DNA from: an uncultured delta proteobacterium
Lineage (GTDB): Bacteria > Myxococcota_A > Polyangia > Fen-1088
NCBI GenBank assembly: GCA_963767925.1
Contig: CAVYGB010000001.1
Span: forward strand, 256,001-320,000
Direction: 5' to 3'
DNA: 64,000 bases
Position 1 is the stretch's first letter. Each line of letters opens with the position of its first letter. Positions 1,931 through 11,495 of this stretch are shown here, in pieces. The notes under the pieces are model-generated. The model ran no database searches and had not been told where the DNA came from. It saw only the letters and a list, made by a program, of their open reading frames with translations. Position numbers and translations under genes: made by a program.

Positions 1931-2222
1931 TCGGCCCGGCGATAGCGGACTCATGTAACGCCGCCTCCGAATCGAAGCGCTCGACTCGCAGGCACCGGAG
2001 GCGTTCGCCGCTGAGGTGTCGCTCGCGCGGCCGCCTGGCTGCGCCCCGCGGGGGCGACCGTGCACGATGGCTGGAGCAGATCGGAGGATTTCCTGCCGCG
2101 ACCGGTTGGCCTTAACGGACGAGCCGGTATATTTTGCGGGAAATGATGGCGGATGGCTCGGTTAGGCTCTAACCAAGCTCCTACCTGTCACCACCTTGTC
2201 GTTCACCGAAGGAGCCTCATCC

Positions 2223-3938
2223 ATGACCACTGTTTTCACGAGACCATCCGGGCCGGGCGCCGGCTCGAGAGGGGGCCTCGCGGCGCTCCTTCTGTTACCT
2301 CTGCTGGCCCTGCTGGCCTGCGGCTCGGACAAGCCGCCGCCCCCGCCGGTGACCGGGGTCGTCGCCGGGGATGGCGGCGCCGCCAGCCCGTGTGGCGGAC
2401 CGGGACAGCCTTGCTGCCAGGCGAACACCTGTGAAGGCGGCGGCTGCTGCGTGCCGGTCTCGGGGGGCAACGGCATCCGCGTCTGTATCGGGGCCGGCCA
2501 GACCTGCACCGGCGGCGGCTCGACCGGCACCTGCAACAACGGCGCCTGCGCCACGGTGGCGGGCGCCCCCTGCGGGCTGACCGGCCAGGCCTGCTGCGGG
2601 ATCAACGCGACCGGCGGCGGCGGGTTCTGCAGCGGGGACTCGGCCAGATGCACGATGGGCACCTGCCTCGAGTGCGGCGGCCCCGGTCAGCTCTGCTGCC
2701 AGGGCGGTGACGCCTACGCCTGTTCGAGCGGCCTGCAGTGCCTGGACAACGGCATGGCCGGTCCGGACACCTGCGGCCAGTGCGGCGGGCCCGACCAGCG
2801 CTGTTGCTCGGACGACGAGTGCGAGACCGGGCTGAACTGCGCGGGCGGCGGCGCCGGTGTGCCGGAGATGTGCCTCGCCTGCGGCGGCGCCGGGCAGCCT
2901 TGCTGCGACAACGACACCTGCAGCGCGGGGCTCGGCTGCTCCGATCCGCCCAACACCGATGGACCGGGGACCTGCACCGCCTGTGGCGGGAGCGGCGAGG
3001 CCTGCTGTCCAGGCGCCAACTGCCAGTCCGGCTTCGGCTGCACGGGGGTCGTGATGGGCATGGGCGGCACCTGCTCGGCGTGCGGCAAGGCCGACCAGGC
3101 CTGCTGTCCGGGCGGCGGCCCGACCGCCTGCGAGTCCGGCCTCGGCTGCGTCGTGGCCACCGGGGGCAACAAGTGCGGCGCCTGCGGCGGCGCCAACCAG
3201 CCCTGCTGCGGCTCGGGGAACACCGGCAACTGTCCCACCGCTGGGCTGGTCTGCACCGGGCGGGGCATGGGCAATCCCGGCACCTGCAACGCCTGTGGCG
3301 CCGCCGACCAGCTCTGCTGCGCCGGGGACAACCCCTGCCGGATGGGGCTGGGCTGCGTGGCGGGCGCGGCGGGCAACCGCTGCGGCACCTGCGGCGCCAT
3401 GGGCCAGGTCTGCTGCGGGACCGGCGGCGCCGGTACCTGCACCGGCGCTGGGCTGGGCTGCGGCGGGCGGGGCGCGGGCAACCCCGGCACCTGCACGACC
3501 TGCGGGGCCGCCGGCCAGGCCTGCTGCAGCATGGGCGGGTCGTGCCAGGGTCCCCTCGGCTGCGTGCAGAGCCCGACCGGCAACACGTGCGGCACCTGCG
3601 GCGCCCTCGGCCAGGTCTGCTGCGGGTCCGGTGGCACCGGCGACTGCCAGGGCGGCCTCGGCTGCAGCGGTCGCGGGATGGGCAACCCGGGGTCCTGCGC
3701 CGTCTGCGGCGGCCCCGGTCAGCCCTGCTGCGACGACAACACCTGCGCGGCCGGCCACCGCTGCGCCATGAGCATGTGTCGCCCGTGCGGGGCCATGGGT
3801 CAGGTCTGCTGCCCCGGCGGCGGGGTCGTGAGCTGCGCCCCGGGCCTGTCCTGCAGCGGCAACGCCAACAACGTCGCCAACACCTGCGCCCCCCCCGCCC
3901 CGCCCGCCCCGCCCGCCGACGCCGGCGTCAACGGGTGA
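2223..3938 (+). CDS. Cys-rich repeat lipoprotein (CGxxxQxCC repeats)
   Basis: AAGGAG RBS, hydrophobic stretch with LLACG lipobox, then 14 CGxx(G/D/N)(Q/E)xCC units. Confidence 0.8.
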   Translation: MTTVFTRPSGPGAGSRGGLAALLLLPLLALLACGSDKPPPPPVTGVVAGDGGAASPCGGPGQPCCQANTCEGGGCCVPVSGGNGIRVCIGAGQTCTGGGSTGTCNNGACATVAGAPCGLTGQACCGINATGGGGFCSGDSARCTMGTCLECGGPGQLCCQGGDAYACSSGLQCLDNGMAGPDTCGQCGGPDQRCCSDDECETGLNCAGGGAGVPEMCLACGGAGQPCCDNDTCSAGLGCSDPPNTDGPGTCTACGGSGEACCPGANCQSGFGCTGVVMGMGGTCSACGKADQACCPGGGPTACESGLGCVVATGGNKCGACGGANQPCCGSGNTGNCPTAGLVCTGRGMGNPGTCNACGAADQLCCAGDNPCRMGLGCVAGAAGNRCGTCGAMGQVCCGTGGAGTCTGAGLGCGGRGAGNPGTCTTCGAAGQACCSMGGSCQGPLGCVQSPTGNTCGTCGALGQVCCGSGGTGDCQGGLGCSGRGMGNPGSCAVCGGPGQPCCDDNTCAAGHRCAMSMCRPCGAMGQVCCPGGGVVSCAPGLSCSGNANNVANTCAPPAPPAPPADAGVNG

Positions 3939-4097: not shown

Positions 4098-5027
4098 TCA
4101 GGCCGGGATGGGCCCGAACTTGCCCTCCTCGACGTCGACGAAGGCCTGGCGGATCTCGTCGAAGGTGTTCATCACGAAGGGGCCGTATTGCACGATGGGC
4201 TCGTCGAGCGGCTGGCCGGCCAGCACGATGACGTGGCTGCTCTCGAGCGCGGTCAGCTCCAGGTGCTCGCCGTCGTTGGCGAACAGGATCAGCTCCCCCG
4301 CGCCGGCCTCGACGTCCCCCGCGCGCACCTTTCCCCTGGCGACAACCGCCAGGGCGTTGTGGGTGGCGGGCAGGCTGACCGGCAGGCGCCCGCCGGCCTC
4401 GAGGCGCGCGTCCAGCATGGTGATCGGGGTGAAGGTGTGAGCGGGACCCTGGGCGCCGGCGTGGGCTCCGGCGATGACCCGCACCGATCCGCCCGCTTCG
4501 AGCGGCACGCTGGGGATGTCGGCCGAGGTGATGGGTTGATAGGCGGGCGGCGCGCCCTTGTCCTTGCGGGGCAAGTTCACCCAGAGCTGCATCATGTGCA
4601 TCGGGCCACCGGCGCGGCTGAAGCGCTCCTCGTGGTACTCCTCGTGGAAGATGCCCGCTCCCGCGGTCATCCATTGCACGTCCCCGGGGCCGATGATCCC
4701 GGCGTGGCCGGCGTTGTCCCGGTGGGCGACGGCGCCTTCCCAGGCCAGGGTGACGGTCTCGAAGCCGCGGTGGGGGTGCCAGCCGACGCCGCGCTTGCCC
4801 TGGGGCAGGGGCGCGAAAGGCTTGGGCGGGCCGTAGTCCATCAGCACGAAGGGGCTCACCCGTTCGGCCGGCAGCTTGCCGCTGGGAAAGTAGGTCGACA
4901 CGTGAAAGCCGTTGCCGACCCAGTGGAACGTGGTGCTGTGAAAGACGCCCTCGACGCTGCGGGTGCTGCTGGGCGCAGTCTGGGCGCGGGCTGTCGCGAG
5001 CGGCGGGGCGCTGGCTGAATTCGACAT
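4098..5027 (-). CDS. Pirin family protein
   Basis: HPHRGFETVT, GDVQWMTAGAGIFHEE, QLWVNLP and YGPFVMNT motifs. Confidence 0.95.
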   Translation of the reverse strand: MSNSASAPPLATARAQTAPSSTRSVEGVFHSTTFHWVGNGFHVSTYFPSGKLPAERVSPFVLMDYGPPKPFAPLPQGKRGVGWHPHRGFETVTLAWEGAVAHRDNAGHAGIIGPGDVQWMTAGAGIFHEEYHEERFSRAGGPMHMMQLWVNLPRKDKGAPPAYQPITSADIPSVPLEAGGSVRVIAGAHAGAQGPAHTFTPITMLDARLEAGGRLPVSLPATHNALAVVARGKVRAGDVEAGAGELILFANDGEHLELTALESSHVIVLAGQPLDEPIVQYGPFVMNTFDEIRQAFVDVEEGKFGPIPA

Positions 5028-5085
5028 GCACCTAGTCTAAGCCCCGGGTCGCGGGCGAACAGCCCGGTCGGGGTGATGACTGGTA

Positions 5086-6042
5086 TCACCCGGGGTGATT
5101 GGCGGCCGGGCCCTTGGTGGGCGCCACCGCCTTGCGGCACAGGTCGGTCAGGCGATCCTGGGCCCACCCGGCGACTGGACCCATCACAGCGTTGCGGCGC
5201 CAGACCAGCACCAGGGCGCGCCGGGGGGCCACCGCGCCCCAGGCGTCCAGGGGCAATTCGACGAGGCGCCCGGCGCGCAGGTCCTCGCGCACGAGGTGCT
5301 CGGGCATGTGCCCCCAGCCGAGGCCGCCGGCGATCAGCGCCTGTTTCGTCGCCAGATCCACCACCCGCCAGGTGCGGGTCGACAGCACGCCCTTATCGTC
5401 CTTCTTGCTCTCGGCCTCGTGGCGGTGCTCGCCGAGCACGATCTGCACCGCCTGGTCCAGGGTGGCCGCATCGATCGGGCTGTTCGGATCTTCGGGGTGG
5501 GCCAGGGGATGTTCGCGCGCGGCTACCGGGATGAGACGCACGTCCGCGATCGCCCGGCGGTCGAGATCGCCGAGGTCGGCGTCCTCGATGGCGATGCCCC
5601 AGGCCGCGCGCTTGTCCCGCACGTGCGCCGTCACCGCCGAGAGGATCTCGGTGAACAGCACGAGCTGGACGCCGGGGTGGGCGCGGGCGAAGTCCTGCGC
5701 GAACCCGACCAGCGATGCGGTCGGGAACAGGACGTCCACGACGATCCGCAGCGTCGTCTCCGCGCCCCGCTTGAGGTGGCCCACCAGCTCGTCCAGGGCA
5801 TCGACCTCGGCGCCCACCTTGTCGGCGGCGGAGACGACGGCCTCCCCGTGTGCGGTCAGGACCGGGACCCGCCCGGTGCGGTCGAACAGCCGCAGCTCGA
5901 GCTGCGCCTCCAGCCGATCGATCGACTGGCTGACGGCGGCCTGGACCCGTCCGAGCTGGCGCGCGGCCGCCGAGAAGCTGCCCGCCGCCGCCACCGCGCG
6001 CAAGGTCCGGAGCTGCTCGAACGTCACGCCCTCGATCGACAT
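5086..6042 (-). CDS. LysR family transcriptional regulator
   Basis: N-terminal HTH GSFSAAARQLGRVQAAVSQSI..LE..L..LFDR, and C-terminal GLGWGHMP. Confidence 0.93.
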   Translation of the reverse strand: MSIEGVTFEQLRTLRAVAAAGSFSAAARQLGRVQAAVSQSIDRLEAQLELRLFDRTGRVPVLTAHGEAVVSAADKVGAEVDALDELVGHLKRGAETTLRIVVDVLFPTASLVGFAQDFARAHPGVQLVLFTEILSAVTAHVRDKRAAWGIAIEDADLGDLDRRAIADVRLIPVAAREHPLAHPEDPNSPIDAATLDQAVQIVLGEHRHEAESKKDDKGVLSTRTWRVVDLATKQALIAGGLGWGHMPEHLVREDLRAGRLVELPLDAWGAVAPRRALVLVWRRNAVMGPVAGWAQDRLTDLCRKAVAPTKGPAANHPG

Positions 6043-6142
6043 GACGCGAATCTACGCCGTCCGCTCGGTCCGGTCGACAGAGGGGCTCCGGTAGCCAGAG
6101 GACCGTCATCGCGACGGACGAGCGTGGCCTCGAGCGGCGACC

Positions 6143-6360
6143 GCAAACCTGGGCGGGGCGAACCTGGGCGGCAGCAACCTCGGTGGCTCCAACCCGAGCG
6201 GCAGCAAGTCTGGGGCAAGACCGAGTGCACCAACAGCTCGGGCTGGACCCGCTGCCCGGTCACCTGCGATCCCGCCGCCGGCCTGCAGGTGCGCATCGGG
6301 ATCGGTCTCGGCACCGACAGCGGCGAAGGGCCCATCGACAACTTCAGCCTGGTCCAGTAA
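6143..6360 (+). pseudogene. Gene remnant: pentapeptide-like repeats joined out of frame to a C-terminal beta-domain fragment
   Basis: 15-bp repeats encode ANLGG-ANLGG-SNLGG-SNPSG. A different frame then gives WGKTECTNSSGWTRCPVTCD..IDNFSLVQ* with coding-like codons and no convincing start. Confidence 0.35.
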
Positions 6361-6378
6361 GAGGGCCTCGGCGGCCCC

Positions 6379-6576
6379 TCAGCGGCGGCGCCCGGCCCGC
6401 TTGTGGGCCAGGCTCTCGGCGGTCAGGTCGAGGCCCACGCGATCGATCGGGCCCAGCCCTTCCACCCCGGCCGCGCGCGCCTCCCCCTCGGGGTCGGCGA
6501 GGAACCGGGCGCGGGCCGTTGGGTCCACGTAGATCCGGGCGAGCAACGCCTCCAGCCGCTCGGCCGCGTCGCTCAT
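6379..6576 (-). CDS. 65-aa protein, putative MNIO partner
   Basis: MSDAAERLEALLARIYVDPTARARFLADPEGEARAAG... Its ATG overlaps the DUF692 stop codon (ATGA). Confidence 0.75.
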   Translation of the reverse strand: MSDAAERLEALLARIYVDPTARARFLADPEGEARAAGVEGLGPIDRVGLDLTAESLAHKRAGRRR

Positions 6577-7445
6577 GCCGTGCTCCGCAGGGCGGTCAGC
6601 CGGGCGCGGCCGGCGGCCAGGGCGACGCGGGCCTGCTCGAGCTCGGCCAGCAGCGGGTCGACGCCCGCGAAGCCGCCGTCGCGCTCGATGAGCACGGTCA
6701 GCGGACGGGGGGTGAGCGCCCCCACCTCGGACAGCAGGTCTAGGACCGCGGGTGGGACCGGGTGCTTGTGGTCGTCGAGCAGGCGCCGCTCGCCCCGGCT
6801 CGTCGCGACCCAGCGCCCGCCCGCGAGGTGGACGGCGGCGATGCGGTCGGCGGGGAGCGCCGCCAGCAGCGCCCGCGGCTGGTGCCCGAAGTTGAGCGCG
6901 TTGGCGTACAGGTTCTGCAGATCGAGCAGCAGGTCGCAGCCCGTGCCCTCGAGGATGGCGGACACCCAGCTCGGCTCGTCGAGGACGCTGCCGGGCGGGG
7001 CGATCAGGGTGGCCACGTTCTCCAGCAGCGGGCGGGCGCCGATCACGGCGGCGGCGCGGGCGACGTTGCGCACGGTTCCGGCGATGGTGGCCGGCGTGCG
7101 GGGCGGGGCGCACAGGTGGCCGATCTCCATCCCGCCCCCGCGCACGAAGGCCAGGTGCTCGGACCAGAACCGCGGCCGGACCAGGGCGGCGACGCGGGCG
7201 AAGAGCGGCAAGCGCGCCTCGTCCACCGGAGCAGCCGAGGCCAGCCCGAGCGAGACCCCGTGCAAGACCACCGGCACGTTGGCCGCCAGGGTCTCGAGCG
7301 CCCGCCACTCGGCCGGCGGGGCGTGGAAGAAGTCGTCCGCCATGACCTCGACCACGTCGATCCGATCCAGGTTGGCGAGGATCCCGGCGGCCAGCGGCCG
7401 CCGCCAGCCCAGCCCGAAGCAGTCGTCGATCTGGCGGCCCGTCAT
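6573..7445 (-). CDS. DUF692 / multinuclear non-heme iron oxidative enzyme (MNIO, UPF0276)
   Basis: GLGWR, LHGVSLGL, SEHLAF, LLENVA, LLLDLQNLYAN, HLAGG, DDH and LIERD motifs. ATGA overlap with the upstream gene. Confidence 0.92.
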   Translation of the reverse strand: MTGRQIDDCFGLGWRRPLAAGILANLDRIDVVEVMADDFFHAPPAEWRALETLAANVPVVLHGVSLGLASAAPVDEARLPLFARVAALVRPRFWSEHLAFVRGGGMEIGHLCAPPRTPATIAGTVRNVARAAAVIGARPLLENVATLIAPPGSVLDEPSWVSAILEGTGCDLLLDLQNLYANALNFGHQPRALLAALPADRIAAVHLAGGRWVATSRGERRLLDDHKHPVPPAVLDLLSEVGALTPRPLTVLIERDGGFAGVDPLLAELEQARVALAAGRARLTALRSTA

Positions 7446-8326
7446 CCCCCACACCCGCCGCAGCCCCCGCCACCGCCACAGCCCCCCCCGCCGCCGCAGG
7501 ACGAGCCGGAGGCGCCACAGGAGGCGCCGCCGCCCGAGCGGCTGGCCGCGGCGTGGGCCCTGGGAAACAGGCTGGCGACCCGCCCCTGGTACAGCGCCGG
7601 CGCCGCCGCCAGGCCGAACACGCCCAGCAGCAGGGCCAGCTCGTTGGTGCTTCCGTCGGTCGGGAGGCTCTCGCGCCGGGCGTGCAAGCCCCCGAACAAG
7701 GTGCGCAGGTCGGCCAGCAGGCGGTCGCCGCGGGTCGTGCGCGGGTGGCGGAGGATCCAGGCCAGCAGCAGCAGCGCGATGACCGCGCCGAAGATCAGGA
7801 ACAGGACGTTGTGGCGGCCGCGGCTGAGCGCCACGAACACCTTCACCGAGGCCACCGCCGCCAGGACCGCCGCCGCCAGCAGGCCCAGCCCCCAGCGCGC
7901 GCTGCTCTGTGCCTGATCGGGGATCAGCCCCTGGCGCCGCAGCTCGGCCCGGAGCTCGAGGCTCGCGGCCAGGACCTGCCGGTTCCCGTTCAGGGCGTGC
8001 CCCTTCTGCGGCTGGCGGCAGGCCTCGAGGATCGCCCGCTCGATCGGCCGGCGGACGCGCCTGGCGGCCTGGTCGTCGGCGGCGCGGACCAGGTCCCCCT
8101 CCTGCTTCAACAGACCCCGTTCACACAGGGCCAGCGTCACCAGCCGGATCGCCTCGTTCTCCTGCCCGCGCAGGAAGGCCGCCAGGTAGGGATCCATGTC
8201 GGGCAGACGCGGGACCGGCCCGTCCTCGTTGCGCTGGCGCCGGCGCCTGACGACAACCAGGACCAGCACCGCGAAGGCGGCGTAAAACAGCAGGAACGCC
8301 GGCCCGGGCCAGTCGAACGGATTCAT
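7442..8326 (-). CDS. TIGR04222-like membrane protein with a Gly/Ser/Cys C-terminal tail
   Basis: NPFD..GP.FL.FY N-terminus, DPY..AFLRG motif, about 3 hydrophobic segments, and the tail SCGASGSSCGGGGGCGGGGGCGGCGG*. GAGGT RBS before ATG 8326. Confidence 0.85.
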   Translation of the reverse strand: MNPFDWPGPAFLLFYAAFAVLVLVVVRRRRQRNEDGPVPRLPDMDPYLAAFLRGQENEAIRLVTLALCERGLLKQEGDLVRAADDQAARRVRRPIERAILEACRQPQKGHALNGNRQVLAASLELRAELRRQGLIPDQAQSSARWGLGLLAAAVLAAVASVKVFVALSRGRHNVLFLIFGAVIALLLLAWILRHPRTTRGDRLLADLRTLFGGLHARRESLPTDGSTNELALLLGVFGLAAAPALYQGRVASLFPRAHAAASRSGGGASCGASGSSCGGGGGCGGGGGCGGCGG

Positions 8327-8374
8327 GCCCACCTCATCGTCTCGGTCCGCATCGCGCCCGTAAGCATCGCCCCG

Positions 8375-9112
8375 TCAGCGCACCTGCTGGGCCCGCCCGT
8401 GCAGCGCCTGGGCCAGCTCCGCCAGGCGCAGCAGGGTGGCCGCGCCGCTGCCGGGCGCCAGCGCCCGCTGCTGGCGGGCTTCGCTGATCTGGGCCAGCAG
8501 GGGCTCCCAGGGACCGCCCGGCAGCGCTCGCGCCACCTCGGCCAGCGCCTCCCGGGGGCCGGGGGCAGGCTTTCCCTCCAGCTCGAGCAGGGCGGCGGCC
8601 GCCGAACGCAGGGGACCGGCCGCGTCGGCCACCGCCAGGGCCGCCTGCTCGTCGCGCAGGCTCTGCAGCACGTAGCGCTCCCGCAGCCGCAGCGTCAGGT
8701 TCAGCAGCACCTGCCGGCAACGGGCCAGCTCCGCCGGCCGCGAGATGGGCAGGTCGGCGAACGGATCGCTGCCGTGGAGCACCCGATGCCGCCGGCGAAT
8801 GTCGGCGAACTTCACCGCAAAGGCCTCCGCCGCCGCCGGCACCTCCTCGGCCAGGATGAACATCGCCTCGAGAGCGATCGCCGCGTGGCTCAGCCGGAAC
8901 GGCTCGCGCAGCCGATCGACCGCCGCCGCGTCGAACCGGCGAAGCACGACGATGAGGTTGACGTCCGAAGTAGGCCGCCACTGCCCCTCCGCCCCGCTGC
9001 CGAACAGGACGACCGACACGAGATCCGCCCCGAGCACCTCGCGGGCCGCGCTGACGAACAGCTCCAACCCACGCTCGACCGGCCCAGGCAACGGCGACAT
9101 CTGCGGCGTCAC
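8375..9112 (-). CDS. Nucleotidyltransferase-domain protein (Pol-beta-like fold)
   Basis: VSVVLFGSGAEG...SDVNLIVVL (GS plus D-x-N motif). Confidence 0.75.
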   Translation of the reverse strand: MTPQMSPLPGPVERGLELFVSAAREVLGADLVSVVLFGSGAEGQWRPTSDVNLIVVLRRFDAAAVDRLREPFRLSHAAIALEAMFILAEEVPAAAEAFAVKFADIRRRHRVLHGSDPFADLPISRPAELARCRQVLLNLTLRLRERYVLQSLRDEQAALAVADAAGPLRSAAAALLELEGKPAPGPREALAEVARALPGGPWEPLLAQISEARQQRALAPGSGAATLLRLAELAQALHGRAQQVR

Positions 9113-9243
9113 CGCCCCATCTTAAACCCCCTCACCGAAGCCGGCAACGGCGCCAGCCAGCTCGTCCTGCGCCTCACGCCCCCCAGCCACCGCTGAGGGA
9201 GGTTCATCGAGCGTTGCCGCCCAGGCGGGAGCAGCCGCAGGCC

Positions 9244-9630
9244 CTACTCGACGAGCTGCACGGGGACGAAGCGATCCGGCGGGATCTCGTCGAGGAGATC
9301 CGCAGGTACTGCTGCCTGGCGGGGCGGCCGGGAGCTATCTCGAGCGACTCGACACAGCCCGATCCGACGCGGTCGTAGACCTTCGTCCCCGAGTAGCCGC
9401 TGCCGACGGGGTGGATGGCGAGCCGTCCATCCCGCCACGATTCGGCATAGGCTCCCAGGACCTGGTCGGTCACCAGCGGCTTCGTGCACGTCGGGTCGCC
9501 GAAGAACTCGGCCGGCTTGTCCAGCACGCCGGTTTTGGGGGAGACAGCGGAGCTGCCCCTCGGAGGCGACGCGCGGCCGGCAGGGGACGCCCAGCTCGAG
9601 GTCGGTGGGCGGATAGGTCAGGTCTGTCTG
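9244..9630 (-). pseudogene. Frameshifted fragment of a Cys-containing secreted-type domain
   Basis: TDLELGVPCRPRVASEGQLRCLP, then in another frame FFGDPTCTKPL..KVYDRVGSGC, then back to DEIPPDRFVPVQLVE*. This pattern implies two frameshifts. Confidence 0.45.
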
Positions 9631-9719
9631 TCGTCGTCGGTTGTTTGTCGCATATTGCAACAAGGTGACGGCGGCGGGTCTGGCGTGGGCTACCAATGGG
9701 GCCGGGAGAACCAGCCTCG

Positions 9720-11495
9720 ATGTTGACGAGCAGACCATTTCATCTCGCCGGTGTGTTGTGCCTGCTGGCCTCCTGTGTGGAGCCCTACGACGGTCCCGAC
9801 CTGGCGATCGTCGATGCGGGCCCGGGGATGGCGGGGGAGCGCGATGGCGGGGCGGTGCCCTCCGGGAACGCCGACGGACCGGCGCCCGGCGAGAGCCTCG
9901 ACGGACCGGCGCCCGGCGAGGGCCTCGACGGGCCGCCGCCCCCCGCAGCGGTGGTCTGTCCAGCGGGGTTCCATGCCTGCCGCGACCGCTGCGCGTCCGA
10001 CACAGATCCCGACACGTGCGGCGTGGCCTGCGAGCCCTGCCCGTCGATCCAGGGCGGGGGCCGCACCTGCGACGGCCGCAAGTGCGGCATCACCTGTCCG
10101 GCCGGCAGCAAACCCTGCCTGGACGCCTGCGTCCCCGACAACGCCCCCTGCGACAACACCTGTCAGCCGGGGCAGAACCTGTGTGGCGGCCTGTGCGTCG
10201 ACGGCAAGAGCGTGAGCGCCTGTGGCCCGACCTGCTCGCCCTGTCCCTCCTCGCCCAGCGGCACCCCCTCCTGCGACGGCGAGAAGTGCGCGCTCGCCTG
10301 CAAAGCGGGCTTCCACCGCTGCGGTGACAGGTGCGAGAGCGACAGCAGCACCGAGGCCTGCGGCCCCTCCTGCCTGGCTTGCCCGGTCCCGGCCGGCGGC
10401 AAGGCCACCTGCCGCAGCGGCCAGTGTGAGTTCGACTGCCCGGGCGGGCGCAAGTGCGGCAACCTGTGCATCGCCAACGACCTGCCCTGCAACGGGGCCT
10501 GCCCGGGCGGGATGCGCGTCTGCAACGGGCGCTGCTTCCCCAACGATGCGGGACCGTGCTGCGTGCCGGGCAGCAAGCGCTGCAACCCCAACGGGCGCGC
10601 CGTCCAGACCTGCAGCGGCAACGCGGCCTTCGCCGACAGCGCGAGCTGCCCCCTGGGCTGCGACGCGGCCCGGTCGGCCTGCATCACCTGCCAGCCGCGG
10701 ACGGAGGTGTGCAACCGCCAGGACGACGACTGCGACGGCGAGATCGACGACAACGTGGCTCCGGTCCCCTGCAGCCCGGCCTGCGCCGGCAACCAGATCT
10801 GCCGGCCCGGGTCGGGGCTCGACGCCTCCTCCTGCGCGCCCACCAACACCGTCGAGCGCTGCGGATCGAGCTGCACCCGCTGCCCGGCCGCCCCCGACGG
10901 CGGCACCATGGCCTGCGAAGGCGGCCGCTGCGTGGCCCGCTGCCCCGGCGCCACCCTGTGCGGGGGCCGCTGCCTGCCCGCCGATCGGGTGTGCGACGGC
11001 CGCTGCGACCAGATCCGCTGCCGCGCCGGCTGCGTCCCGGCCAGCACGGGCTGTCCGCCCACCCGCCCGCTGCGCCTCTTCTTCAGCGTCCCCCGGCTCG
11101 ACAACTACACCACCGGCACCGAGGCCGGCGCGTCCAACGCCGTCAACTCCGGGTACTTCGACGCCGGCACCATGGGCCACCTCGAGAGCGCCCAGCTGCC
11201 CGGGACCAAGCCGCTGTTCTGCTACTTCAACCCGACCACGGGCGACAATCTGGTCACCGACGCCTCCTCGCCCCCCGGCGGGTTCGGCCCCTGCAACCTG
11301 GGCAACGGCAACGTGGAGGGCTTCGTCTACGGCAGCGCCCGCGCCGACACGGTCCCCCTCGTCCTGTGGCTCAACGACAGCGACCGCAGCGACCACCACC
11401 TCATCAGCGACGGCTTCCAGTCCGACAGCGACCTCACCGGCCAGAACTACCGCAAGCTCCGCACCGTCGGCCACGCCCTCCGCCGCCCGAACTGA
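9720..11495 (+). CDS. Cys-rich lipoprotein with a MopE-like metal-binding motif and a DUF5648-like C-terminus
   Basis: LLASC lipobox, repeated CG..C..CP modules, EVCNRQDDDCDGEIDD, and C-terminal PL..F/Y...D(N/H)..T repeats. Confidence 0.75.
   Translation: MLTSRPFHLAGVLCLLASCVEPYDGPDLAIVDAGPGMAGERDGGAVPSGNADGPAPGESLDGPAPGEGLDGPPPPAAVVCPAGFHACRDRCASDTDPDTCGVACEPCPSIQGGGRTCDGRKCGITCPAGSKPCLDACVPDNAPCDNTCQPGQNLCGGLCVDGKSVSACGPTCSPCPSSPSGTPSCDGEKCALACKAGFHRCGDRCESDSSTEACGPSCLACPVPAGGKATCRSGQCEFDCPGGRKCGNLCIANDLPCNGACPGGMRVCNGRCFPNDAGPCCVPGSKRCNPNGRAVQTCSGNAAFADSASCPLGCDAARSACITCQPRTEVCNRQDDDCDGEIDDNVAPVPCSPACAGNQICRPGSGLDASSCAPTNTVERCGSSCTRCPAAPDGGTMACEGGRCVARCPGATLCGGRCLPADRVCDGRCDQIRCRAGCVPASTGCPPTRPLRLFFSVPRLDNYTTGTEAGASNAVNSGYFDAGTMGHLESAQLPGTKPLFCYFNPTTGDNLVTDASSPPGGFGPCNLGNGNVEGFVYGSARADTVPLVLWLNDSDRSDHHLISDGFQSDSDLTGQNYRKLRTVGHALRRPN

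Follow-up and report, generated by a model that had tools for sequence, protein, structure and literature searches.

The window analysed here is a stretch of 64,000 nucleotides from an uncultured delta proteobacterium (contig CAVYGB010000001.1, positions 256,001 to 320,000 of the forward strand), on which four minus-strand genes encode, from the first to the last, a nucleotidyltransferase-like protein, a TIGR04222 membrane protein with a Cys/Gly tail, an MNIO (DUF692) oxidase and a small NHLP/LigA-like protein. The TIGR04222-MNIO cassette is real, conserved and coherent, and we infer from it a mechanism that goes beyond gene content: with a probability of about 60%, judged from sequence comparisons, the MNIO and the small subunit would turn the cysteines of the tail into 5-thiooxazoles and thereby produce a metal-binding tail tethered to the membrane. 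The features of the cassette are the following, in window coordinates.

8375..9112, minus strand: AadA-like (Pol-beta fold) nucleotidyltransferase-like protein of 245 residues, first gene of the cassette, 42 nucleotides upstream of the TIGR04222 gene
7442..8326, minus strand: TIGR04222 membrane protein of 294 residues, counted from the ATG (NCBIfam TIGR04222, 103.8 bits)
7445..7522, minus strand: Cys/Gly tail SCGASGSSCGGGGGCGGGGGCGGCGG, 26 residues with 5 Cys, each followed by Gly, read directly; proposed substrate
6573..7445, minus strand: MNIO (DUF692) oxidase of 290 residues, assigned to the BufB/HvfB-like branch (PF05114, E 8.2e-65)
6379..6576, minus strand: small helical protein of 65 residues, assigned to the NHLP/LigA clan by family-level profile matches, without conserved Cys

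The first-pass annotation had described three minus-strand genes joined by two ATGA stop/start overlaps, and both overlaps could be read directly (7445-7442 and 6576-6573). Its two family assignments were borne out by profile searches, in which the membrane protein covered positions 3-228 of the 229 of TIGR04222 (E 1e-29, cut-off 43 bits) and the oxidase positions 2-261 of the 263 of PF05114 (219.1 bits, gathering cut-off 25). The membrane protein spans the membrane several times and ends in the five-Cys tail, as had been noticed, and the low-complexity Gly/Cys-rich C-terminus that follows the domain in the TIGR04222 family is thus present as a tail of 26 residues. Its start was placed at the ATG; the residues M1-N2 show no variation among 76 homologues, and the reading frame is likewise open from a GTG at 8332. 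The unit of three genes was correct as far as it went but incomplete, the nucleotidyltransferase gene (9112..8375 on the minus strand) having been missed.

Related loci were collected by searching one genome per species with a three-sequence alignment of the TIGR04222 domain without its tail. As the loci were picked by this tail-less domain alone, they were chosen regardless of their neighbours. The resulting 79 loci (L023-L101) were defined by two N-terminal peptide patterns and represent one subfamily, not all TIGR04222 proteins. All of them are metagenome-assembled genome records and none comes from a cultured isolate. According to the record titles, approximately two-thirds belong to Acidobacteriota lineages and the others to Myxococcota, Pseudomonadota, Planctomycetota, Verrucomicrobiota, Elusimicrobiota, Bdellovibrionota, Armatimonadota and further groups. 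The neighbours were counted by scanning six-frame open reading frames with local hidden Markov models built from sequences of this analysis.

These counts revealed an MNIO gene directly downstream of TIGR04222 in 66 of the 71 loci with at least 1300 nucleotides of downstream DNA, and the MNIO together with the small protein in 63 of them. The gene arrangement is far beyond chance, because the same gene order recurs in these 66 loci, and the gene-neighbourhood comparison suggested in the first-pass annotation has thus gone in its favour. The nucleotidyltransferase gene lies directly upstream of TIGR04222 in 61 of the 73 loci with at least 800 nucleotides upstream; two loci (L062 and L090), in which it stands between two TIGR04222 copies, fall outside the adjacency criterion of this count. 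All four genes are found in 46 of the 65 loci with both flanks. Among the 71 loci, every one possesses either an MNIO or a radical-SAM/SPASM gene: the five without adjacent MNIO consist of four with an SbtM-like radical-SAM/SPASM gene and a fifth (L097) with a frameshifted TIGR04222 gene and an MNIO match just downstream. The LysR and pirin genes that neighbour the cassette in the window are each kept in 1 of the 79 loci, and since they are not conserved the boundaries of the cassette are exactly these four genes. Its distribution is patchy, because, of the 61 genomes that represent the class of the window, only 5 have a TIGR04222 match above the cut-off.

The tail is the most constant part of the membrane protein. 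Complete open reading frames end in a Cys/Gly tail with 3-8 Cys in 76 of the 79 loci, and the three others are either cut by contig ends (two) or frameshifted (one). The consensus of the end is ...CGGGCGGCG[GS], CGGCG[GS] being almost always last, and the tail is the best-conserved stretch between TIGR04222 proteins that share only 26-31% identity elsewhere. In five loci (L047, L053, L059, L062 and L090) two TIGR04222 genes in tandem, each with its own Cys/Gly tail, precede a single MNIO, an organization resembling the multi-precursor clusters of RiPPs (peptides made by ribosomes and modified after translation). In a distant TIGR04222 subfamily of 26-30% identity (L019 in genome G046, 7328-10811; L020 in genome G003, 5486-8867) the tails are still made of CGGGGGC repeats and the nucleotidyltransferase is retained, with a canonical D-x-D in G046. 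The MNIO of this subfamily carries a C-terminal extension of about 190 residues unrelated to the small NHLP-like protein: the small-protein model gave no match in the extensions of G003 and G046, which represent a different partner type, perhaps the one published as 'PME-type 2'.

That the tail is the substrate, as the first-pass annotation had proposed, is supported by its conservation, by the tandem TIGR04222 genes and by the MNIO or SbtM-like gene that always adjoins it; the modification itself is what we infer from this comparison. The tail could also work unmodified, as a thiolate metal or Fe-S site or as a lipidation site, with the MNIO and the nucleotidyltransferase serving another, unseen substrate. 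Cys/Gly tails can bind metals alone, and about a third of the genomes with TIGR04222 genes are without any MNIO (PMC12452194; this and the other published sources are cited here for the accessible portions of their texts). In the present subfamily, on the other hand, every locus with enough flanking DNA has an MNIO or SbtM-like gene beside the tail gene, often with overlapping stop and start codons, which makes an unmodified tail quite improbable.

The nature of the modification is suggested by the exchange of one maturation enzyme for another. In a genome of the window's own family (locus L022 in G016), the nucleotidyltransferase gene and a TIGR04222 orthologue (41% identity, Cys/Gly-tailed) have a convergent radical-SAM/SPASM gene behind them in place of an MNIO. 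This gene scores 500.8 bits on TIGR04082, the thio(seleno)oxazole modification radical SAM maturase SbtM, with a cut-off of 350. L022 lies outside the 79-locus scan, and tblastn detected neither an MNIO nor a small-protein match in it. In total, the radical-SAM neighbours of four loci score 452-510 bits on TIGR04082, the copies of L063, L078 and L080 being directly downstream of TIGR04222. These SbtM equivalogs beside TIGR04222 are the following.

L022, 7256-8287, plus strand: SbtM equivalog (TIGR04082)
L063, 1867-2895: SbtM equivalog (TIGR04082)
L078, 6916-7974: SbtM equivalog (TIGR04082)
L080, 6944-7924: SbtM equivalog (TIGR04082)

Two of the four radical-SAM loci counted among the 71 pass the SbtM cut-off. 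The five radical-SAM loci of the 79 have no MNIO and no small gene, and all keep the tail and the nucleotidyltransferase. The window cassette itself contains no SbtM. In peptides, SbtM forms thio(seleno)oxazole from Cys or Sec, four hydrogens being lost, and for Cys the formation of thiooxazole was obtained in vitro (PMC11002830), while MNIO-PME1 clusters are described to 'broadly install' 5-thiooxazole (PMC13097082). Two unrelated enzymes with the same known product therefore alternate beside the same tail, and this is the strongest argument for the tail as substrate and for thiooxazole as product. In some lineages, the radical-SAM/SPASM enzyme (SbtM by score in four loci) would thus replace the MNIO and its subunit and carry out the same chemistry. 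In the SbtM homologues linked to TIGR04222, the match to the 516-position TIGR04082 profile is limited to positions 195-516, the first 194 or so being missing; this missing N-terminal part parallels the absence of the DUF2063-RRE (RiPP recognition element) protein in the MNIO version.

The MNIO of the window belongs to the BufB/HvfB-like branch, yet it remains below the cut-offs of both equivalogs: it scores 183.7 bits on BufB (NF050167, cut-off 310), 133.4 on HvfB (NF003818, cut-off 360) and 38.6 on MbnB (cut-off 325). The closest solved chain is 3bww (E 2e-21). In 68 sequences, conservation reaches at least 95% at H62, E96, H97, E142, D175, N178, H206, D225, H226, H228 and E254, in keeping with an intact iron site; the candidate ligands among them (H62, H97, E142, D175, N178, H206, D225, H228 and E254) are those suggested by analogy with MbnB. 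The MNIO could act on the tail cysteines and yield something other than 5-thiooxazole, namely an oxazolone-thioamide as in methanobactin, a beta-carbon excision as with TglH, cross-links or another oxidation. The scores below every equivalog cut-off (BufB, HvfB and MbnB) and the new type of the 65-residue partner leave room for such a product, and the two heterocycles are hard to tell apart (PMC12538549). It is nevertheless unlikely, because the best scores are those of BufB and HvfB, for which 5-thiooxazole is the product currently assigned (PMC13097082), and because the enzyme that takes the place of the MNIO in four loci is an SbtM equivalog with thiooxazole as known product.

A second MNIO system was observed elsewhere in the same genome (C8:2350473-2354282), with a true BufB (351.9 bits, cut-off 310) accompanied by an HvfC-like DUF2063/RRE protein (57 bits, below its cut-off) and by a 77-residue Lys-rich precursor with a signal-peptide-like N-terminus and two Cys. 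The cassette of the window is thus a second, distinct system. Pfam and NCBIfam scans gave no match for a DUF2063-RRE (PME1) partner among the cassette genes, and the position of this partner is taken by the 65-residue protein.

The first-pass annotation had presented this small protein as the partner of the MNIO, and the comparison agrees with it. The small protein is found behind the MNIO in 63 of the 66 MNIO loci, is encoded in the same open reading frame as the MNIO in 21 of 65 loci and is missing from all five radical-SAM loci of the 79. A three-sequence profile searched with HMMER against 1.84 billion cluster representatives gave 502 matches at E <= 1e-3 and 131 at E <= 1e-10, mostly of 70-100 residues; a word-index search with the 65-residue protein had retrieved only two close relatives. 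Among eight longer matches that were scanned, six have an MNIO N-terminal to the small domain (P0021, P0107, P0069, P0075, P0101 and P0082) and two show no MNIO match (P0059 and P0083). P0075 was considered as a TIGR04222-MNIO-small triple fusion and rejected, the gene model being frameshifted with a garbled middle and only the MNIO-small part being in frame. The small-protein matches in G038, G050 and G049 fall within long open reading frames of another kind and were regarded as spurious.

No Cys is conserved in the family, which shares the core LEAFLARLYVD..ARARFLADP..EA..AGL...IDR.GL.LAA.SFA.KR, followed by a variable basic stretch; the window copy stops five residues past the KR motif. NF038399 (Os1348 NHLP-clan) is matched by 76 of 82 members with a best E of 8e-12, Pfam LigA (PF07746) by 49, TIGR04509 (NHLP-related RiPP peptide) by 33 and Frankia_peptide by 17. 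Compared with solved chains, the family profile finds SonA, a LigA-domain RiPP precursor, and an NHase-alpha-like chain of 85 residues, both at E of about 1e-3. Taken alone, the window copy is below the NF038399 cut-off (25.1 bits against 40) and gives no Pfam match at 0.01. Pfam and NCBIfam scans of the cassette genes and their immediate neighbours revealed no protease or exporter family. The earlier statement that no short precursor, protease or exporter is adjacent thus holds for the last two and calls for a caveat on the first, the 65-residue gene belonging to a clan that often provides RiPP leader domains but lacking a conserved Cys.

These relationships raise the question whether the 65-residue protein could be the true RiPP precursor, a leader domain with a variable basic core, the TIGR04222 protein being then an anchor, an exporter or an immunity factor. 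The clan of leader domains (the 76 matches to NF038399 and those to SonA) and the succession of a conserved domain and a variable tail are compatible with it, and enzyme-precursor fusions exist in borosins. We consider it very improbable: there is no conserved Cys and no conserved residue past the KR motif, the window copy ends almost at once after this motif, the MNIO branch is closest to Cys-modifying enzymes and the radical-SAM loci that lack the small gene retain the Cys tail. Because it follows the MNIO in nearly all MNIO loci and is fused to it in about a third, we conclude from these comparisons that the 65-residue protein, as a homologue of LigA domains and of RiPP leaders, should be a part of the enzyme in this MNIO clade (subunit or domain) and not a precursor, and that it would replace the DUF2063-RRE partner. 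Its action may be that of a lid, of a leader mimic or of a membrane tether. The 'adjamnio-V' very small proteins mentioned in the accessible part of PMC12452194 may be the same family.

The upstream protein matches Pfam NTP_transf_2 just above the cut-off (21.5 bits against 21). Its nucleotidyltransferase motif is GS..x9..SD50-V-N52 followed by E90; in 65 sequences G38, S49, D50 and E90 are invariant and N52 nearly so. The AlphaFold2 model (pLDDT 94.4) is matched by Foldseek over its full length, including both domains, to AadA, ANT(3'')(9) and AAD(9) (E 1.6e-7, TM score about 0.6), and more weakly to ANT(4'), to Hailong HalB and to MNT antitoxins. The protein is not a member of the aminoglycoside nucleotidyltransferase families, on which it scores about 20 bits with cut-offs of 340-545, and its D50-V-N52 is not the canonical D-x-D; the fold alone is shared. 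It thus has the two-domain fold of AadA/ANT(3'')(9) with the second metal-binding Asp replaced by Asn (N52). By spacing, D50 and E90 correspond to D47 and E87 of AadA, and the position of its catalytic base is retained.

Nothing suggests antibiotic resistance, and the genomic context points to a protein substrate. The nucleotidyltransferase, kept in all five radical-SAM loci of the 79 and in L022, stays with TIGR04222 whichever maturase is present and would act either upon the substrate protein or together with it. Its role may be that of an active O-nucleotidyltransferase with the Ser-rich tail as target, or that of an adaptor. The prediction of a complex between the TIGR04222 protein and the nucleotidyltransferase scored 0.01, with a mark of 0.32, which says nothing either way.

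The AlphaFold2 model of the TIGR04222 protein (pLDDT 91, pTM 0.83) contains long hydrophobic helices at 8-34, 138-168 and 175-192, a soluble alpha/beta insert at 46-131 and short helices at 198-264 before the tail, which is disordered (pLDDT below 50). Foldseek of this model against the PDB found nothing at E <= 0.001, and a wide structure search gave only generic three-helix bundles (best Z 11.6, less than the value of about 13 needed for helical bundles). A fourth hydrophobic stretch is a ten-residue helix (228-237) with a family hydropathy peak of 1.5, compared with 2.2-2.5 for the three others. As this helix is short and weakly hydrophobic, the insert and the C-terminal region should lie on the same side of the membrane.

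The first-pass annotation had recommended a prediction of the side on which the tail lies, and the outcome is divided. In the helix flanks, Lys plus Arg are more numerous on the side of the insert and of the C-terminal region (9.05 against 3.45, with the difference in this direction in each of 76 sequences), which favours a cytoplasmic location of that side, and around the first helix these residues are more numerous in the C-flank than in the N-flank in 69 of 76 sequences. In the opposite direction, the Cys-rich tail of other family members is predicted to be periplasmic (PMC12452194), and an apparently intact single open reading frame of nucleotidyltransferase and TIGR04222 (P0153, one case) would place the N-terminus inside, against a cytoplasmic tail. 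From these sequence features a cytoplasmic tail, which would be within reach of cytoplasmic enzymes, is only slightly favoured. Two other nucleotidyltransferase-TIGR04222 forms (P0155 and P0163) and a TIGR04222-MNIO form (P0154) were discarded as evidence on topology owing to garbled or truncated stretches.

The proposed four-gene operon (nucleotidyltransferase-like protein, TIGR04222, MNIO and small NHLP/LigA-like subunit) would mature a protein and not a released peptide. The TIGR04222 protein would be anchored in the membrane by its three long modelled helices and would carry the disordered Cys-Gly tail at its C-terminus. The MNIO would work with the small subunit, a pairing demonstrated by gene fusion, in place of the usual DUF2063/RRE partner. 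Using O2 and its iron site, it would turn the tail cysteines into 5-thiooxazoles with the loss of four hydrogens per Cys, in the manner of the BufB/HvfB-type MNIOs that act on secreted peptides, and the product would be a membrane-tethered string of heterocycles binding soft metals such as copper.

Several points weigh against this proposal. The sub-cut-off BufB and HvfB scores mean that the product chemistry is extrapolated within a family of chemically diverse enzymes. The related radical-SAM/SPASM gene of L069 and L089 is located upstream and reaches only 144 bits on TIGR04082, below the cut-off. The tree of 76 TIGR04222 proteins, built by a quick method, is unresolved at its base and does not distinguish one MNIO/SbtM exchange from several. 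The nucleotidyltransferase is absent in 10 of 73 loci and may be dispensable, and the tail may lie on the cytoplasmic or on the periplasmic side. Finally, the literature searched contains no mass, spectrum or expression datum for any member of the family. Among sequencing runs, a search listed no RNA run with the sequence and two DNA runs with a fraction of 0.06 of its words.

A further-reaching reading joins all components in one 'leader-in-trans' system. A stand-alone or enzyme-fused NHLP-type leader domain would keep a BufB-like MNIO permanently on and so allow thiooxazoles to be installed on a membrane-protein tail that has no leader; the MNIO, which depends on O2, and SbtM, which does not, would be interchangeable on that tail, as are FGE and anSME for sulfatases; and the nucleotidyltransferase would either add a second modification, for example the O-nucleotidylation of the Ser-rich tail, or act as an adaptor replacing the RRE. 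As a whole, this joint reading is speculative, and we regard it as doubtful.

The cassette lies in a genome of 9.34 Mb in 13 contigs with 84% completeness. A LysR-type regulator gene and a pirin gene (4098-6042, minus strand) are situated on the same strand behind the cassette, after a gap of 336 nucleotides. The region is flanked by two Cys/Gly-rich repeat proteins with signal-peptide-like starts, of 580 residues (2196-3938, plus strand) and 599 residues (9696-11495, plus strand); a relative of the latter adjoins the cassette of the same genus (L023) and is not found elsewhere (1 of 79 loci). Both repeat proteins are probably unrelated to the cassette. A scan of 5900-9800 for promoters and terminators gave no matches, which is uninformative in such G+C-rich DNA. 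On one metagenome contig, a single open reading frame of 604 residues (P0162) runs from the nucleotidyltransferase straight into an MNIO truncated at its 5' end and on to the small domain, without TIGR04222, owing to either a deletion or an artefact of assembly.

An in silico description of TIGR04222-MNIO gene clusters was given by Antoine, Leprevost et al. (Microb Genom 2025, PMC12452194), who collected more than 3,500 TIGR04222 proteins, mostly from Actinomycetota. Among more than 1,000 proteins with Cys and without signal peptide that are encoded before MNIO genes, 40% are TIGR04222 proteins. Their clusters have no DUF2063 genes; at least 10% possess 'PME-type 2' partners and many have no recognisable partner. 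A modification of the tail was proposed by these authors, the modification and its role being said to 'remain to be investigated'. The core TIGR04222-MNIO idea is thus already published, and the window is a further member of that class. Added here are the sharply bounded set of four genes, the NHLP/LigA-like subunit with its many fusions to the MNIO, the alternation of MNIO and SbtM, from which a product can be predicted, and the AadA-like fourth component; the terms 'nucleotidyl', 'SPASM' and 'NHLP' do not occur in the accessible part of that text. In agreement with the first-pass annotation, the literature searched contains no biochemical study of the TIGR04222-MNIO arrangement, a provisional result since most subscription journals were outside the search.

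To our knowledge, the substrates on which MNIO chemistry has been demonstrated to date are all peptides or small secreted proteins. If the proposal is true, the cassette would extend this chemistry to the tail of an integral membrane protein, and a tail located in the cytoplasm would be the first thiooxazole metal site inside the cell that is tethered to the membrane. The minimal four-gene set, the very small partner type and the MNIO-to-SbtM exchange predicting 5-thiooxazole are three handles beyond the published survey, as far as its accessible text goes, and they make the question of Antoine et al., whether and how TIGR04222 proteins are modified, directly testable.

Compared with the clusters of PMC12452194, the window shows the same pairing: a TIGR04222 gene whose product is rich in Cys near its C-terminus precedes an MNIO gene, and a DUF2063 partner is lacking. 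That set is mostly actinomycetotal and often without partner, whereas the present subfamily consists, by title, mostly of acidobacterial metagenome-assembled genomes, always has an MNIO or SbtM and carries the NHLP/LigA-like subunit. The bufferin (BufA/BufB/BufC) and oxazolin/fontiphorin-type (HvfA/HvfB/HvfC) systems share with the cassette the same broad MNIO branch, a Cys-then-Gly substrate and a copper-binding 5-thiooxazole as expected product. Their substrates are Sec-exported peptides or small proteins with signal peptides, in contrast to the tail of a 294-residue polytopic membrane protein, and their partner is the DUF2063-RRE (PME1) protein, where the window has a 65-residue NHLP/LigA-like domain and, in addition, a nucleotidyltransferase. 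With SbtM/SbtA the likeness concerns the relatives, in which a Cys-Gly tail of this kind has an SbtM equivalog at its side where the window has the MNIO and its small subunit; the substrate is the SbtA peptide in that system and would be a membrane protein here. Lastly, SonA of the split borosin SonM/SonA and the NHLP/LigA leaders display a weak but consistent profile similarity to the small protein and provide the example of a helical domain that docks a precursor onto its enzyme; unlike these leaders, the small protein is without a core peptide and frequently forms one polypeptide with the enzyme.

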